Positions 2,972-7,105 of a stretch of 27,739 bases of DNA are shown piece after piece. The position numbers and the translations under genes were made by a program. The notes beneath the pieces were generated by a model. The model did no database searches. It worked only from the letters and a program-made list of their open reading frames with translations, and was not told where the DNA came from. Source of the stretch: a virus (lineage: Duplodnaviria > Heunggongvirae > Uroviricota > Caudoviricetes); IMG/VR virus record IMGVR_UViG_2695420411_000008; one strand, given 5' to 3'. Numbering within the stretch: position 1 is the first letter of the stretch; every line of letters begins with the position of its first letter.

Positions 2972-3187
2972 ATGTTACGCATGGAAAAACTAACCACTGG
3001 CATCGCCTATGGTGCATCAGCGACTAACGCTGGTTACTGGAGCCTGCAGTTGCTTGACCAGGTGTCACCATCGCAGTGGGCAGCCATTGGTGTGCTTGGC
3101 AGCCTGGTGTTCGGGCTGCTGACGTATCTGACAAACCTGTATTTCAAAATCAAAGAGGACCGGCGCAAAGCCGCCAGGGGGGAATAG
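2972..3187 (+). CDS. Holin, phage 21 S-like pinholin, with dual-start motif
   Basis: GGAGG RBS; N-terminus M-L-R-M-E-K (two in-frame Mets 3 codons apart flanking Arg); two TM segments; close resemblance to S21. Confidence 0.9.
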
Positions 3188-3723
3188 TGGCTGACAGATC
3201 AAAGCTTAGCGCTGCGGTATTAGGTCTTATCCTCGCCGGTGCGTCAGCGCCCGTTATTCTCGATCAGTTCCTGAATGAGAAGGAAGGCAACAGCCTGATT
3301 GCTTATCAGGACGGTGGCGGCGTCTGGACTATTTGCCGCGGCGCCACGCTGGTAGATGGTAAACCAGTTCGCCAGGGCATGAAGCTGACGCAGGCCAAAT
3401 GTGACCAGGTGAATGCCGTTGAGCGAAATAAAGCGCTGGCCTGGGTTGAACGCAATATCAGGGTGCCGCTGACCGAACCGCAAAAGGCCGGAATAGCTTC
3501 TTTCTGCCCGTATAACATCGGGCCCGGTAAGTGCTTCCCCTCGACGTTCTATAAGCGCATCAATGCCGGTGACCGTAAAGGGGCATGCGAAGCGATCCGC
3601 TGGTGGATAAAAGATGGCGGCCGGGATTGCCGGCTAACCAAGGGGCAGAAGAACGGATGCTTCGGTCAGGTGGAACGCCGCGACCAAGAAAGCGCGTTGG
3701 CATGCTGGGGGCTCGATAAATGA
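3187..3723 (+). CDS. SAR endolysin (T4-lysozyme-type muramidase with N-terminal signal-anchor-release domain)
   Basis: GTG start overlaps holin stop; Gly/Ala-rich weakly hydrophobic N-terminus; catalytic spacing E-x8-D-x5-T in EGNSLIAYQDGGGVWT. Confidence 0.85.
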   Translation: MADRSKLSAAVLGLILAGASAPVILDQFLNEKEGNSLIAYQDGGGVWTICRGATLVDGKPVRQGMKLTQAKCDQVNAVERNKALAWVERNIRVPLTEPQKAGIASFCPYNIGPGKCFPSTFYKRINAGDRKGACEAIRWWIKDGGRDCRLTKGQKNGCFGQVERRDQESALACWGLDK

Positions 3724-4112
3724 AAGCTCGTCACATCATTGCGATTGCCATATTCCTCCTTTGCCTGTTCGGCGGGGCGTGCTGGTCGGCATGGTATTAC
3801 AGCGACAAAGCCAGTAGCGAAAAGGAGCGGGCCGATAGCGCAGAACAGCAGGCTGAGACCGCGAATGCTGTCACCGCGAACGTGATTCGGGCCGTGAGTA
3901 TCATCAACGCCATTTCAGAGGCGAACCAGAATGCAAAGAACAAGATCGCACTGGAGTCACAGAGAGCCCAGGCAGATATCAAAGTGGCTGTTGCGGATGA
4001 TGATTGCGCTCGTCGGCCTGTGCCTGCTGCAGCTGCTAACCGGCTGCGGGAATACGCGGACAGTTTACGTGCAGGCGCCGGTGGTGCCCCTGCCGGCGAA
4101 CCTGACAGCTGA
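3720..4112 (+). CDS. Spanin inner-membrane subunit (Rz-like)
   Basis: ATGA overlap with endolysin stop; N-terminal TM helix then a coiled-coil-like periplasmic domain. Confidence 0.7.
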   Translation: MKARHIIAIAIFLLCLFGGACWSAWYYSDKASSEKERADSAEQQAETANAVTANVIRAVSIINAISEANQNAKNKIALESQRAQADIKVAVADDDCARRPVPAAAANRLREYADSLRAGAGGAPAGEPDS

Positions 4113-4260
4113 AACACCACAGCCTGCCATTCCCGAGCCGCTGACCTACGGGGACAGTCTGGATCTGAATGTCAGTCTGCTATCGGCGCTGGGGCAATGC
4201 AATCGGGATAAGGCTGATATATGGAAGGTTGAACTTTCACGCACATCTCATTTTAAATAA
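3997..4260 (+). CDS. Spanin outer-membrane lipoprotein subunit (Rz1-like), overlapping Rz in another frame
   Basis: Signal peptide with lipobox LLTGC, Pro-rich mature part; starts inside Rz and extends past its stop. Confidence 0.6.
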   Translation: MMIALVGLCLLQLLTGCGNTRTVYVQAPVVPLPANLTAETPQPAIPEPLTYGDSLDLNVSLLSALGQCNRDKADIWKVELSRTSHFK

Positions 4261-4266
4261 CAATAT

Positions 4267-4294
4267 TTGCGAAAGTTACCCGTTTCGCTATCAT
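4267..4294 (+). promoter_or_regulatory. Candidate sigma70 promoter
   Basis: TTGCGA - 16 nt - TATCAT immediately after Rz1. Confidence 0.3.
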
Positions 4295-4648
4295 AAAAAA
4301 TGTTAACCCACGGAAAGTTCAAGGAGGTCTTTTTGACCCAGTTTTTGGACTTCCCCTTAAGCAACCGTTGATCGTGACGTCAGGGTTCCTGAGCCAGGGG
4401 TAACAGAAATCGAGAGGATAGTGCGAAGGGAGAATTCCGAGATGGATGACCATCTTGAGATTTTTACCACCCGCGTCTGGGACGTTGGAGTCTCCCGCCT
4501 TTCAGGTCACGCTGTTGGGTCAATTCATGAAAAGCCAAGGGGCTCAGGTGACGCTGCTTGGTTTGGCCCCGAAATGTCCGTCGCGTCATTAGGGATAACT
4601 GAACCTTGTAGTAATTCGCATTAGCTTGGCCTTCCTTTCACCTACAAA

Positions 4649-4668
4649 CCGCCTACGGGCGGTTTTTT
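4649..4668 (+). terminator. Rho-independent terminator (possibly bidirectional)
   Basis: CCGCC-TACG-GGCGG hairpin followed by TTTTTT; reverse strand has hairpin then TTTGT. Confidence 0.6.
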
Positions 4669-4759
4669 AGTGTCAACGCTATGGACAAACTCATCTTTAT
4701 GGCTACATCCCCCGGAGGGGATGCGTAAAAGGCTTAAGAAAAATGATTTTGAAAAATGC

Positions 4760-5020
4760 TTATTGTGCTCTGCCTAGTAGAGCAGCGACTCTCTCGTTTA
4801 ATTTTTCTAGGTATCCATCTTTAGCGGGAATGTCGAATTCGATGGGGTCGGCCTTAGAAACCCCTTCTAAATAAACATCTCCGAGGTGAGTTTCTTTCCC
4901 CACAACTCCGTTTAAAGCCGTTGATAATACAGCAATAGCAACACGAGAAGCGTGGCTGTGTAACTGTAACTCTTCAACCAAATCCTCAAGATGGGCAATT
5001 CTTTTTTCTACATCTGACAT
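4760..5020 (-). CDS. Hypothetical 86-aa protein, antisense to the late operon
   Basis: Clean ORF on minus strand in a locally AT-rich segment between lysis and terminase genes; charged helical-looking sequence; no family recognised. Confidence 0.5.
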   Translation of the reverse strand: MSDVEKRIAHLEDLVEELQLHSHASRVAIAVLSTALNGVVGKETHLGDVYLEGVSKADPIEFDIPAKDGYLEKLNERVAALLGRAQ

Positions 5021-5156
5021 AGTCGTTCCTTTGCATCAAAGTTCTTAGGGTTGAAACATGACACTTGTATAGAAGCAAAATAATTTTTGCCGCTAATACT
5101 TCGTCATTTTCAATGGTTACTATCGCCTCGTTTATTGGAATATTCCAGAGAGTTTT

Positions 5157-5864
5157 ATGGCAAAACCGGACTGGGGAAGCCTCCAAAGACGGTTCCTCGC
5201 CGAGCATGCCAAAACAGGTATATCGCCGAAAGAATGGTGCGAAGCGCAGGGACTGAATTATACATCTGCGCGCAGGTACATCAAAAAGCCTGCTGCGCAA
5301 AAAACTGCGCAAAAGGATGTGCGCAAAACTGCGCAAAGCCAGATGCCGCATGTAGTAGTGGTTGAAGCCTCTACGCCAGTTGAGGGCGATACTGCGCAGG
5401 AAAACGCAGGCATCCTTAAACCACAGCATGAGCAGTTTGCGCAGAACATCGCGCGGGGCATGCCGCAGAAAGAGGCGGCGATATGCGCGGGCTATTCGCC
5501 TTCACGCGCTGATTCCCAGGCATCGATACTTTTCAAACGCCCGGATGTGCGCAGGCGCATCAGAGAGCTGCGTCAGGATGCCGCTCTGCTCGTATCATTC
5601 GACGCGAAAGACCTGGCTGAACTCTCCTACAAATCGGCGAAAGCCGCGCTGGACGCTGAGAAGTTTGGGCAGGTAGCCCCGAACATCAAAAACGCCGCGC
5701 AGCTCACCGGCATCGACATGAGCAACAAAACGGAAGTGAATGTCGATCTGGCTGGCCTGAGTTACGGAAAGGTCTGCATCGTCACGCCGTCGAACTGCCC
5801 GCCTGAAGCGTGGGCAGCGCACATGGATAAGCTGCGCGAGGGAAAGCAGACAGCCCAACAATAA
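5157..5864 (+). CDS. Terminase small subunit
   Basis: Directly upstream of terL; N-terminal HTH-like segment [25 protein letters not shown]. Confidence 0.75.
5294..5337 (+). repeat. Four spaced copies of TGCGCAAA inside terS
   Basis: TGCGCAAA at 5294, 5306, 5320 and 5330; encodes a repeated AQK(T/D) peptide. Confidence 0.6.
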
Positions 5865-5899: not shown

Positions 5900-7105
5900 G
5901 TGCTCGGGACGCTGTACGACGCACCGATAGGCTCTGTCCGCTGGCGCTGGACGTATGGCGGTCGTGGTGGCGGCAAATCGGTAGAGATTGCCCGCGCGCT
6001 GGTATTGTTGGGCGCTATCGAGCCAATGATCATCCTGTGCGCTCGTGAGTTCCAGAACTCTATCAACGATTCGGTACTGGCACTGCTGGACGCTGAAATC
6101 CACTCGCTTGGCCTGGCGCACTTCTACAAGGTCAAGAACAACGAGATAGAGGGCAGCAACGGCACGCGGTTTACCTTCAAAGGTCTGCGCAACAACATCC
6201 AGAGCATTAAGTCGATGCACGGCATCAAAATATGCTGGGTAGAGGAAGCGCAAACCGTATCGCAGGATAGCTGGGACATCCTCGGTCCGACCGTTCGCGC
6301 CAATAAATCCGAAGTGTGGGTGTCGTTCAACCCGCGCGAAGCTACCGACCCGACCTACGCCATGATGGAGCGGCACCGCGCCGATCCCCCTGATGGCGGA
6401 GCGATTATTACCTGCGTCAACTACTGCGATAACGCATTCTTCCCTGACGTGCTCAGGCACGAGATGGAATACTGCAAGCGTATCGACTTCGAGGCTTACG
6501 AGCATATCTGGCTGGGGCTGCCGAAGGCGCTCAGTGAGGCCGTTATCTTCTCCGGCAAGTACCGGGTTGAGGCATTCTCTGACGACCTGTGGAAAGAAGC
6601 CGATCGCCTGTTTTATGGGGCTGACTTCGGTTTCGCCAACGACCCATCCACTCTGGTCCGTTGCTTCATTATCGGCACCCGATTGTACATCGAGTACGAA
6701 GCCTACGGCGTCGGCGTCGAGCTGGACGAAATGGCGCAGTTCTATGACTCCATCCCGGAATCCAGAAAATGGCCCATTCACGGCGACTGCAGCCGGCCGG
6801 AGACCATCAGTTATCTTTCGCGTCAGGGCTTCATCATCGACGGCGCTACCAAATGGCCGGGGAGCGTTGAGGACGGCATTACCTACCTGAAAGGGTTCGA
6901 AGAAATCATCATCCATGAGCGCTGTAAGCACATGGTCGATGAGGCGCGCCTTTACTCCTACAAAACCGACCGCATGACCGGCGAAGTGCTGCCGGTTGTC
7001 GTGGATAAGCATAACCACCTGTGGGATGCCGTGCGCTACTCGCTGGATGGATACATCACAAGCGTTGGCGATCTCGGTGTCTGGGCCGCCCTGGGCAAAC
7101 AATAA
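5900..7105 (+). CDS. Terminase large subunit
   Basis: Walker A GGRGGGKS near the N-terminus, C-terminal nuclease-like region; GTG start as in ORF track, true start uncertain. Confidence 0.9.

Follow-up and report, generated by a model that had tools for sequence, protein, structure and literature searches.

Among the phage RNAs described so far, phi29 pRNA (~120-174 nt) is joined through 4-nt intermolecular loop pairs and is found in phages whose DNA is protein-primed and which have a dedicated ATPase, and the c4 RNA of P1 and P7 (immI region) is a 77-nt product processed from an mRNA, with targets that overlap the ribosome-binding site of the downstream gene. Known morons of lambdoid phages, such as bor and lom of lambda, encode proteins. 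The element considered here is a structured RNA of ~368 nt, apparently encoded between the spanin genes and the terminase genes of a lambdoid Escherichia coli prophage, part of which makes up IMG/VR record IMGVR_UViG_2695420411_000008 (a 27,739-nt stretch, analysed whole and hereafter called the window). ROOL and GOLLD RNAs are roughly twice the size of this element, occur in other bacterial phyla and usually lie near tRNA genes. Their covarying 'tertiary' kissing loops turned out to bridge molecules in a cage (PMC12286853). In staphylococcal phages, the structured cabRNA of roughly 400 nt comes from the terminase region; it is reported to be transcribed within the terminase genes and sensed by the host CBASS cyclase, with no sign of a dedicated gene (PMC10686824).

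The RNA in the window resembles ROOL and GOLLD in being borne by a phage or prophage, in having no associated protein and in combining a complex multi-helix fold with covarying pseudoknots and kissing loops (PMC12286853). However, it has no sequence or structure match to either in Rfam, and it is set apart from them by its length of ~368 nt, its occurrence in Enterobacterales only and its fixed position after the lysis genes. Like phi29 pRNA, it contains two mutually complementary loops that covary between phages, and its gene lies near packaging functions, but its loops form pairings of 6-7 nt, its length is double that of pRNA and Rfam returns no match; in addition, the neighbouring terminases belong to several classical types that need no RNA, and there is no association with a single portal or ATPase. 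The short complementary segments on one transcript, which differ in sequence between phages while their complementarity is kept, thereby giving specificity, recall c4. In contrast to c4, neither loop overlaps a ribosome-binding site, no regulated gene follows, and Rfam gives no match here either. As a genomic unit it is organised like lambda bor and lom, being self-contained, equipped with its own promoter and terminator, placed between late-operon modules and absent in close relatives, and it differs from the known morons in its cargo, a large structured RNA. Unlike cabRNA, it lies outside any gene, comes with a promoter and a terminator of its own and shows strong purifying selection.

We put the probability that this interval holds a real structured RNA gene at about 95%. 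The earlier note, made from the letters of the window, had proposed a ~370-nt structured RNA at this place, and comparison with homologues bears the proposal out. In the single sequence the signals do not rise above chance: the minimum free energy z-score of the plus strand is -1.97, with 6 of 100 shuffles folding as well, the folding energy of the minus strand lies 0.6 standard deviations below its shuffles, and promoter-like and terminator-like sites number 2 (1.6 expected) and 3 (1.4 expected), respectively. The case therefore rests on comparison with related sequences. Four other explanations were weighed, in the order of a cis-acting attenuator, a seed-pairing small RNA (sRNA), the mRNA of a micro-protein, and a packaging RNA or DNA site.

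Among 5,426 complete E. coli genomes, the 420-nt interval is 100% identical in 17 and represented by a 78%-identical copy in three more, and none of these 20 matches has an annotated feature under the interval. In the E. coli lysogen NCTC11023 the locus occupies 2634020-2634439 on the minus strand of NZ_LS483297.1. Further homologues were found by exact-pattern scans of public collections, with the matches verified by nhmmer. The scans recovered ~25 loci with the RNA in viral contigs, three species representatives among 185,579 genomes (Serratia sp. H1w, Citrobacter portucalensis and a Pseudescherichia metagenome-assembled genome), one plasmid-borne copy (in a prophage on a Rahnella aceris megaplasmid) and five new copies in metagenomes; ten of 13 genome matches and three of 12 metagenome matches were discarded as chance matches. 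A blastn search of 50,697 phage GenBank records gave no match to the RNA. Scanning the viral contigs with two further conserved blocks, again checked by nhmmer, added no true members, so the sampled family looks near saturation. It consists of 28 distinct sequences (alignment A4), all from lambdoid prophages of Enterobacterales, with copies in E. coli, Citrobacter, Pseudescherichia, Serratia and Rahnella.

The alignment carries a strong signal of conserved structure. RNAalifold predicted 89 pairs from a first alignment of 22 copies, 31 of them with compensatory double changes. A model of 97 pairs that includes the pseudoknots, applied to all 28 copies, is paired in 96.1% of cells, against 89.0 +/- 0.3% in shuffles and 34-50% when the partners are slid, and double-sided changes occur in 41 of the 97 pairs compared with 20.1 +/- 2.1 in shuffles. 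None of 500 shuffles reached the observed values on any of five measures. Read on the minus strand, the same pairs are 84.1% paired, with 337 G-U cells turning into A-C, and this drop places the RNA on the plus strand, the same as the late genes.

Two domains followed by a terminator make up the predicted fold (Table 1). Most columns of the 5' domain are invariant among the 28 copies, and two of its G-U pairs are never replaced by G-C or A-U; the short hairpin at 4368-4383 shows one G-C to A-U double change, in L007. The helices of the more variable 3' domain are each 88-100% paired and have 2-11 pairs with double changes. The variable arm at 4553-4612 forms a long hairpin around a conserved GGGAUAAC internal loop in every copy folded singly. 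A further candidate pairing, AGGUGA (4546-4551) with UCACCU (4638-4643), was dropped, its variants being uncompensated in the alignment.

The same alignment argues against a coding role. The earlier note had seen no convincing open reading frame (ORF) in the interval, and that assessment stands: no ORF longer than 12 codons is conserved, as frame and extent shift among the 22 copies first aligned, and indels of 1-2 nt occur throughout the alignment. A 67-aa ORF (4421-4624) and a 48-aa ORF (4446-4592) were rejected as not conserved in the homologues, as was a 23-codon ORF from ATG 4300, the start of which varies among ATG, TTG, CTG, GTG and ACG and which contains an in-frame TAG in L006 and L010. 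The comparison of homologues that the note had proposed for separating coding from structural constraint thus falls on the side of structure, with a third-position pattern absent and structure-preserving changes abundant.

The mini-ORF inside the 5' domain deserves separate treatment, since a micro-protein or dual-function RNA could be envisaged in which the 12-residue peptide is functional and the remainder serves as a stabilising 3' untranslated region (UTR). Its Shine-Dalgarno sequence stands 4 nt before the UUG, and frame and stop are retained in all 28 copies (the 22 of the first alignment and the six added later). However, variable sites number 7, 4 and 2 at codon positions 1, 2 and 3, the nearly invariant third positions indicate constraint at the RNA level, and L-to-E, N-to-I and P-to-L are among the replacements. 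At least one of the changes, a U-to-G that turns Phe into Val, has its compensating partner on the opposite strand of P2, outside the ORF. The first-position bias and this compensation imply that the peptide itself is not the selected feature, and the 300 nt of covarying structure downstream are hard to explain as a UTR. We therefore consider the micro-protein explanation improbable, and the substitution pattern, anti-coding in the mini-ORF, indicates that the RNA is non-coding.

Judged from its sequence signals, 4267-4668 is an autonomous transcription unit, in which a predicted sigma-70 promoter precedes an RNA of ~368 nt that ends in an intrinsic terminator. The promoter-like TTGCGA-16-TATCAT noted earlier at 4267-4294 is present, and its hexamers recur in all 27 distinct upstream flanks, with a -35 element (TTGnnn or ATGACA) and a -10 element (TAnnnT) 16-18 nt apart. 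In the homologues the -10 element ends 5-6 nt upstream of a conserved UGUUAACCC, which points to an RNA start at 4301 +/- 1, whereas the spacer and the upstream flanks diverge. In some copies the -35 element overlaps the last Rz codons, so that homology between copies begins exactly at the promoter. The spacer at 4269-4288 is an inverted repeat (GCGAAAGTTACCCGTTTCGC) that appears terminator-like on the minus strand in the scan, and a CCGYTTCG motif stands just upstream of the -10 element in about half of the copies; either is possibly an operator. A conserved promoter makes it unlikely that the interval is no more than a structured 3' UTR. The GC hairpin with its T6 run is likewise real (AAACCGCC-TACG-GGCGGTTT at 4646-4665, the T6 run extending to 4668) and is kept, with one double change, in 26 of the 28 aligned copies; of the two exceptions, the contig of L023 ends before it and L002 has lost it. 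Beyond it lie two further hairpins. The first has a counterpart with the conserved base GCCAUYAC...GUAAUGG in most copies, among 24 downstream flanks folded and compared by eye, and its top is variable yet still self-complementary; the second is CAUCCCC-CGGA-GGGGAUG at 4706-4723. A U-run follows the post-terminator hairpin in L003 and L007. From these folds, the hairpins may act as a second terminator or belong to an extended form of the RNA.

A unit that ends in a terminator ahead of packaging genes could also be a cis-acting leader or attenuator, in which translation of the mini-ORF, or binding of a ligand or protein, remodels the fold and decides between stopping at 4646-4668 and reading on into the terminase genes. 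The perfect Shine-Dalgarno sequence, the UUG and the 12-codon ORF with its conserved stop in 28 of 28 copies would suit such a device, all the more as the stop codon lies inside the stem of the kissing hairpin, which a terminating ribosome would unfold. The small-terminase gene begins shortly after the terminator in L003/L011 (within ~50 nt of the RNA), L007 and L008, and conserved, mutually exclusive pairings hint at alternative conformers. However, the downstream genes differ between copies and sometimes lie on the opposite strand, as here (4760-5020, minus), so the constant 5' UTR position before one same-strand gene family that is expected of a riboswitch or leader is not seen. The terminator is strong and stands ~275 nt after the ORF stop, no conserved antiterminator pairing was seen (the mutually exclusive conserved pairings lie elsewhere in the RNA), and the late genes are already served by Q antitermination. 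On balance an attenuator is unlikely.

The most informative part of the fold links its two domains. An all-against-all covariation scan for adjacent, antiparallel long-range pairs detected a 6-bp helix between the loops at 4373-4378 and 4506-4511, which is 99.4% paired, with double changes at five of its six pairs. Nine different complementary versions occur among the 28 copies: CGUGAC/GUCACG, CUCGAC/GUCGAG, GGGCGAC/GUCGCCC, CGCUAC/GUAGCG, CUAGAC/GUCUAG, CGUUAU/AUAACG, CACGAC/GUCGUG, CGCGAC/GUCGCG and CAUAAC/GUUAUG. This covariation indicates that the 5' and 3' domains are linked by a loop-loop helix. Closely related copies can carry different alleles: L029 and L032, and likewise L013 and L023, have CGUGAC/GUCACG against CUCGAC/GUCGAG, a swap of four to five coordinated differences, despite only 17-22 other differences. 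The same two alleles recur in unrelated backgrounds, and this recurrence suggests that recombination took place or that selection favours a switch in loop specificity.

A second bridge between the domains is plausible. The earlier note had pointed to long-range complementarity here, and a perfect 8-nt complement does exist (CCTGAGCC at 4388-4395 against GGCTCAGG at 4541-4548), but the pairing shows no covariation: the two strands (CCUGAGCC/GGCUCAGG) are both invariant in 27 of the 28 copies, so that covariation is no guide for or against it. By our own arithmetic, a random sequence of 470 bases would contain ~1.6 perfect 8-nt inverted repeats, and CCUGAGCC has a local alternative, in which CCUGA pairs with UCAGG at 4380-4384. 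The only copy in which the complement is broken, at two positions, is L002 (6021-6365; E. coli strain 53, NZ_CP048359.1), which is the 78% version present in three E. coli genomes; it also has mismatched kissing loops, as well as the lost terminator. L002 looks like a decaying copy, and its simultaneous losses fit a joint need for these features. A further perfect 8-nt complement, UUGACCCA (4333-4340) with UGGGUCAA (4516-4523), involves the start codon of the mini-ORF. Its 6-bp core (4333-4338 with 4518-4523) can pair in all 28 copies with no covariation, and it conflicts with the P2 apex and the base of hairpin 4497-4520, both better supported; it may reflect an alternative conformer or have no significance. 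Taken together, the covarying loop-loop helix and what is probably an invariant 8-bp long-range helix would give, as modelled, either a compact pseudoknotted fold or a domain-swapped oligomer. By analogy with ROOL and GOLLD, the pairing of 4373-4378 with 4506-4511 could be an intermolecular bridge.

Table 1. Features of the RNA locus and its surroundings in the window
Feature	Position	Strand	Basis or remark
Q antiterminator			start of the gene order around the RNA
P21-type holin	2972-3187		
Lysozyme	3184-3723		
Rz	3720-4112		
Rz1/LysC	ends 4260		directly before the RNA interval
Predicted sigma-70 promoter: -35 TTGCGA, 16-nt spacer, -10 TATCAT	4267-4272; 4289-4294	+	consensus scan, homologue flanks
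Non-coding RNA body, ~368 nt, two domains and terminator	4301-4668	+	28 aligned homologues
5' domain, ultra-conserved	4301-4402	+	RNAalifold, pair counts
Helix P1, closes 5' domain	4306-4309 with 4398-4401	+	100% paired
Long hairpin P2	4312-4355	+	96% paired; A-U to U-G compensation at one pair
Perfect Shine-Dalgarno sequence AAGGAGGU	4321-4328	+	4 nt before UUG 4333
12-codon ORF, MTQFLDFPLSNR	UUG 4333 to UGA 4371	+	inside 5' domain
Short hairpin	4368-4371 with 4380-4383	+	99% paired; presents kissing loop 1
Kissing loop 1, CGUGAC	4373-4378	+	covariation scan; pairs with 4506-4511
CCUGAGCC, 5' strand of candidate long-range helix	4388-4395	+	complement of 4541-4548
3' domain, more variable than 5' domain	4412-4639	+	pair counts
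Outer helix of 3' domain	4412-4417 with 4634-4639	+	
Helix of 3' domain	4428-4433 with 4491-4496	+	encloses hairpins 4438-4457 and 4470-4488
Hairpin of 3' domain	4497-4520	+	double changes at 4 of 7 pairs; carries kissing loop 2
Kissing loop 2, GUCACG, apical loop of hairpin 4497-4520	4506-4511	+	covariation scan
Helix of 3' domain	4534-4539 with 4625-4630	+	encloses variable long arm 4553-4612
GGCUCAGG, 3' strand of candidate long-range helix	4541-4548	+	
Intrinsic terminator: 8-bp stem, UACG loop, U6 tail	4646-4668	+	terminator scan, alignment
First post-terminator hairpin	4678-4685 with 4696-4703	+	folded flanks
Second post-terminator hairpin	4706-4712 with 4717-4723	+	folded flanks
86-aa ORF, phrog_16546	4760-5020	-	between RNA and small-terminase gene
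Small terminase	5157-5864		
PBSX-type large terminase	5900-7105		
DUF1073 portal			after large terminase

The genomic setting of the RNA is constant on one side and variable on the other. In every locus with enough flank, it comes immediately 3' to the last lysis gene and shares its orientation, although the lysis genes before it fall into several unrelated clusters; the cassette preceding the 78%-identical copy, for instance, is wholly different and comprises two holins, a GH108 endolysin and small spanin-like ORFs. Downstream come small ORFs on either strand and then terminases of at least three types, namely the PBSX-type of this window, a different small/large terminase pair, and a third set with a DUF1441 protein, a large terminase and a portal. 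These downstream neighbours belong to many unrelated clusters and include no protein family that is consistently adjacent among the loci compared. At several loci they are encoded on the opposite strand, as is the 86-aa ORF at 4760-5020 of this window, which has no Pfam match. Related Rz/Rz1 cassettes match in 512 E. coli genomes, whereas a near-full-length match is found in only 18. In two RNA-less Rz/Rz1 cassettes that were inspected, Rz1 is followed at once by an HNH/terminase region or is separated from it by one small ORF. As RNA-less cassettes run into the packaging genes and the RNA occurs behind unrelated lysis types, it appears to be an optional, mobile, moron-like cassette. Its own promoter and terminator, as predicted, are conserved across the family, it is present or absent between related phages at a module junction, and its slot after Rz/Rz1 is the one occupied by lambda bor. 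In the prophage of the Rahnella aceris plasmid p2, there is a separate, strong rydB match (RF00118; L053:4383-4443), which scores 79.7 bits where the gathering score is 50 and has a DNA methyltransferase gene on one side and the holin gene of the prophage on the other.

This setting bears directly on a role in packaging, whether as a pRNA-like ring acting with terminase and portal or as pac, cos or another DNA-level site, the latter having been offered in the earlier note as a packaging-site region. The location just upstream of the packaging genes and the two complementary, covarying loops, as in phi29 pRNA, are in keeping with it. However, at least three unrelated terminase/portal types adjoin the RNA, often with other genes in between, and the constant physical link of the RNA is to the end of the lysis module. 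DNA packaging in lambdoid and P22-like phages is generally known to proceed without RNA, and the strand asymmetry that depends on G-U pairs, together with the compensatory changes, favours an RNA over a DNA site. A packaging function is thus highly improbable.

Searches for a known identity were negative. The Rfam scan that the earlier note had suggested, run over the whole window with the 4227 covariance models of Rfam 15, gave no matches at the gathering score, which leaves the RNA outside the known families; at E-values up to 10, the 4100-5200 region matched only terminator-shaped fragments of STnc130, RNAI and rli54 and, at 4734-4778, downstream of the RNA, a weak STnc240 fragment. Four divergent copies likewise gave nothing on the RNA in Rfam, and ARAGORN detected no tRNA or tmRNA gene in the window. 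In the literature searched, including recent large surveys of structured RNAs from phages and bacteria, nothing like this RNA is described and five diagnostic 17-20-mers are absent, although the 10,000 unnamed IMG/VR motifs of PMC10690425 may include it. A CsrA sponge, considered for the CsrB-like size and several GGA motifs, was dropped, as the GGA in the hairpin loop at 4446-4448 is GGG in most copies. A likeness of GGGUUCCUGAGCCAGGGGUAAC to E. coli type I-E and type I-F CRISPR repeats, compared by eye, was also rejected, since it requires three gaps and does not reproduce the repeat hairpin. Given that the defining tests of the named RNA families failed, the element is classed as a new RNA family, new relative to Rfam, and as a moron that carries an RNA.

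A prophage sRNA or RNA antitoxin, also raised by the earlier note, would act by antisense pairing to a host or phage mRNA, with the fold merely a scaffold for the seed. The independent promoter-terminator unit in a prophage is what known prophage sRNAs have, long invariant stretches are unpaired, and a terminator hairpin followed by U6 forms the 3' end. However, the rest of the 27-kb window shows no excess of complementarity (19 complementary 10-mers against 18.5 +/- 6.3 expected), host targets lying outside this search. Neither ToxI-like tandem or direct repeats in the RNA nor a conserved neighbouring protein or adjacent toxin gene was found, and the size and two-domain pseudoknotted architecture far exceed those of known seed-type sRNAs. 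The proposal is thus neither supported nor excluded by these results, and we rate base-pairing regulation as unlikely, slightly more so than attenuation.

A trans-acting, structure-based mode is the reading that we favour for the function of the RNA, with a confidence somewhat above even. The sigma-70 promoter of the unit would drive synthesis of the RNA in the lysogen, and in lytic growth every genome copy would serve as a template. The RNA would then act in trans, with its three-dimensional shape as the active feature in place of a peptide or of simple antisense pairing. In one form it would be a ribonucleoprotein scaffold or decoy, bound to a conserved factor of host or phage; in the other it would assemble with itself through the complementary loops. 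The extreme conservation of the 5' domain strands without covariation, together with the two fixed G-U pairs, points to a surface read by another macromolecule, and the invariant, only wobble-paired GGAGG stretch with the junction nucleotides would be the likeliest contact surface. Given the GGAGG, the ribosome is a candidate partner; a host protein or a second copy of the RNA would be equally possible.

Several points weigh against this picture. The family comprises no more than 28 distinct copies from a narrow taxonomic range, and the 5' and 3' ends of the RNA are placed from sequence signals. Polymerase modified by Q would read through the unit during lytic growth, making a cis role within the late transcript possible. 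The Shine-Dalgarno sequence, the UUG and the always-open 12-codon frame could mean that translation matters, a feature for which a purely structural RNA offers no explanation. Moreover, the kissing helix may form within one molecule or between molecules, and the helices 4388-4395/4541-4548 and 4333-4338/4518-4523 lack covariation and each compete with a local pairing.

Large, intricately folded non-coding RNAs are rare, and almost every class studied has proved to be a ribozyme, the core of a ribonucleoprotein or a self-assembling particle. An undescribed large RNA in prophages of E. coli and its relatives is unexpected, as these are the best-studied bacteria and phages, and it indicates that RNAs missed by gene callers can be the cargo of lambdoid moron slots. 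The nine compensatory kissing-loop versions amount to a natural mutational series, in lysogens that are held in culture collections and in which genetics is easy. More speculatively, the RNA might be the first representative of a new class of compact phage RNAs that are doubly pseudoknotted and need no dedicated protein, either a self-assembling particle or a ribozyme or ribosome-binding RNA that uses its GGAGG 5' domain, with a part in phage-host or phage-phage conflict. If the particle form of this tentative idea is true, it would assemble through kissing loops as ROOL and GOLLD do, and the allele specificity of its loops would keep the RNAs of co-resident prophages unmixed.

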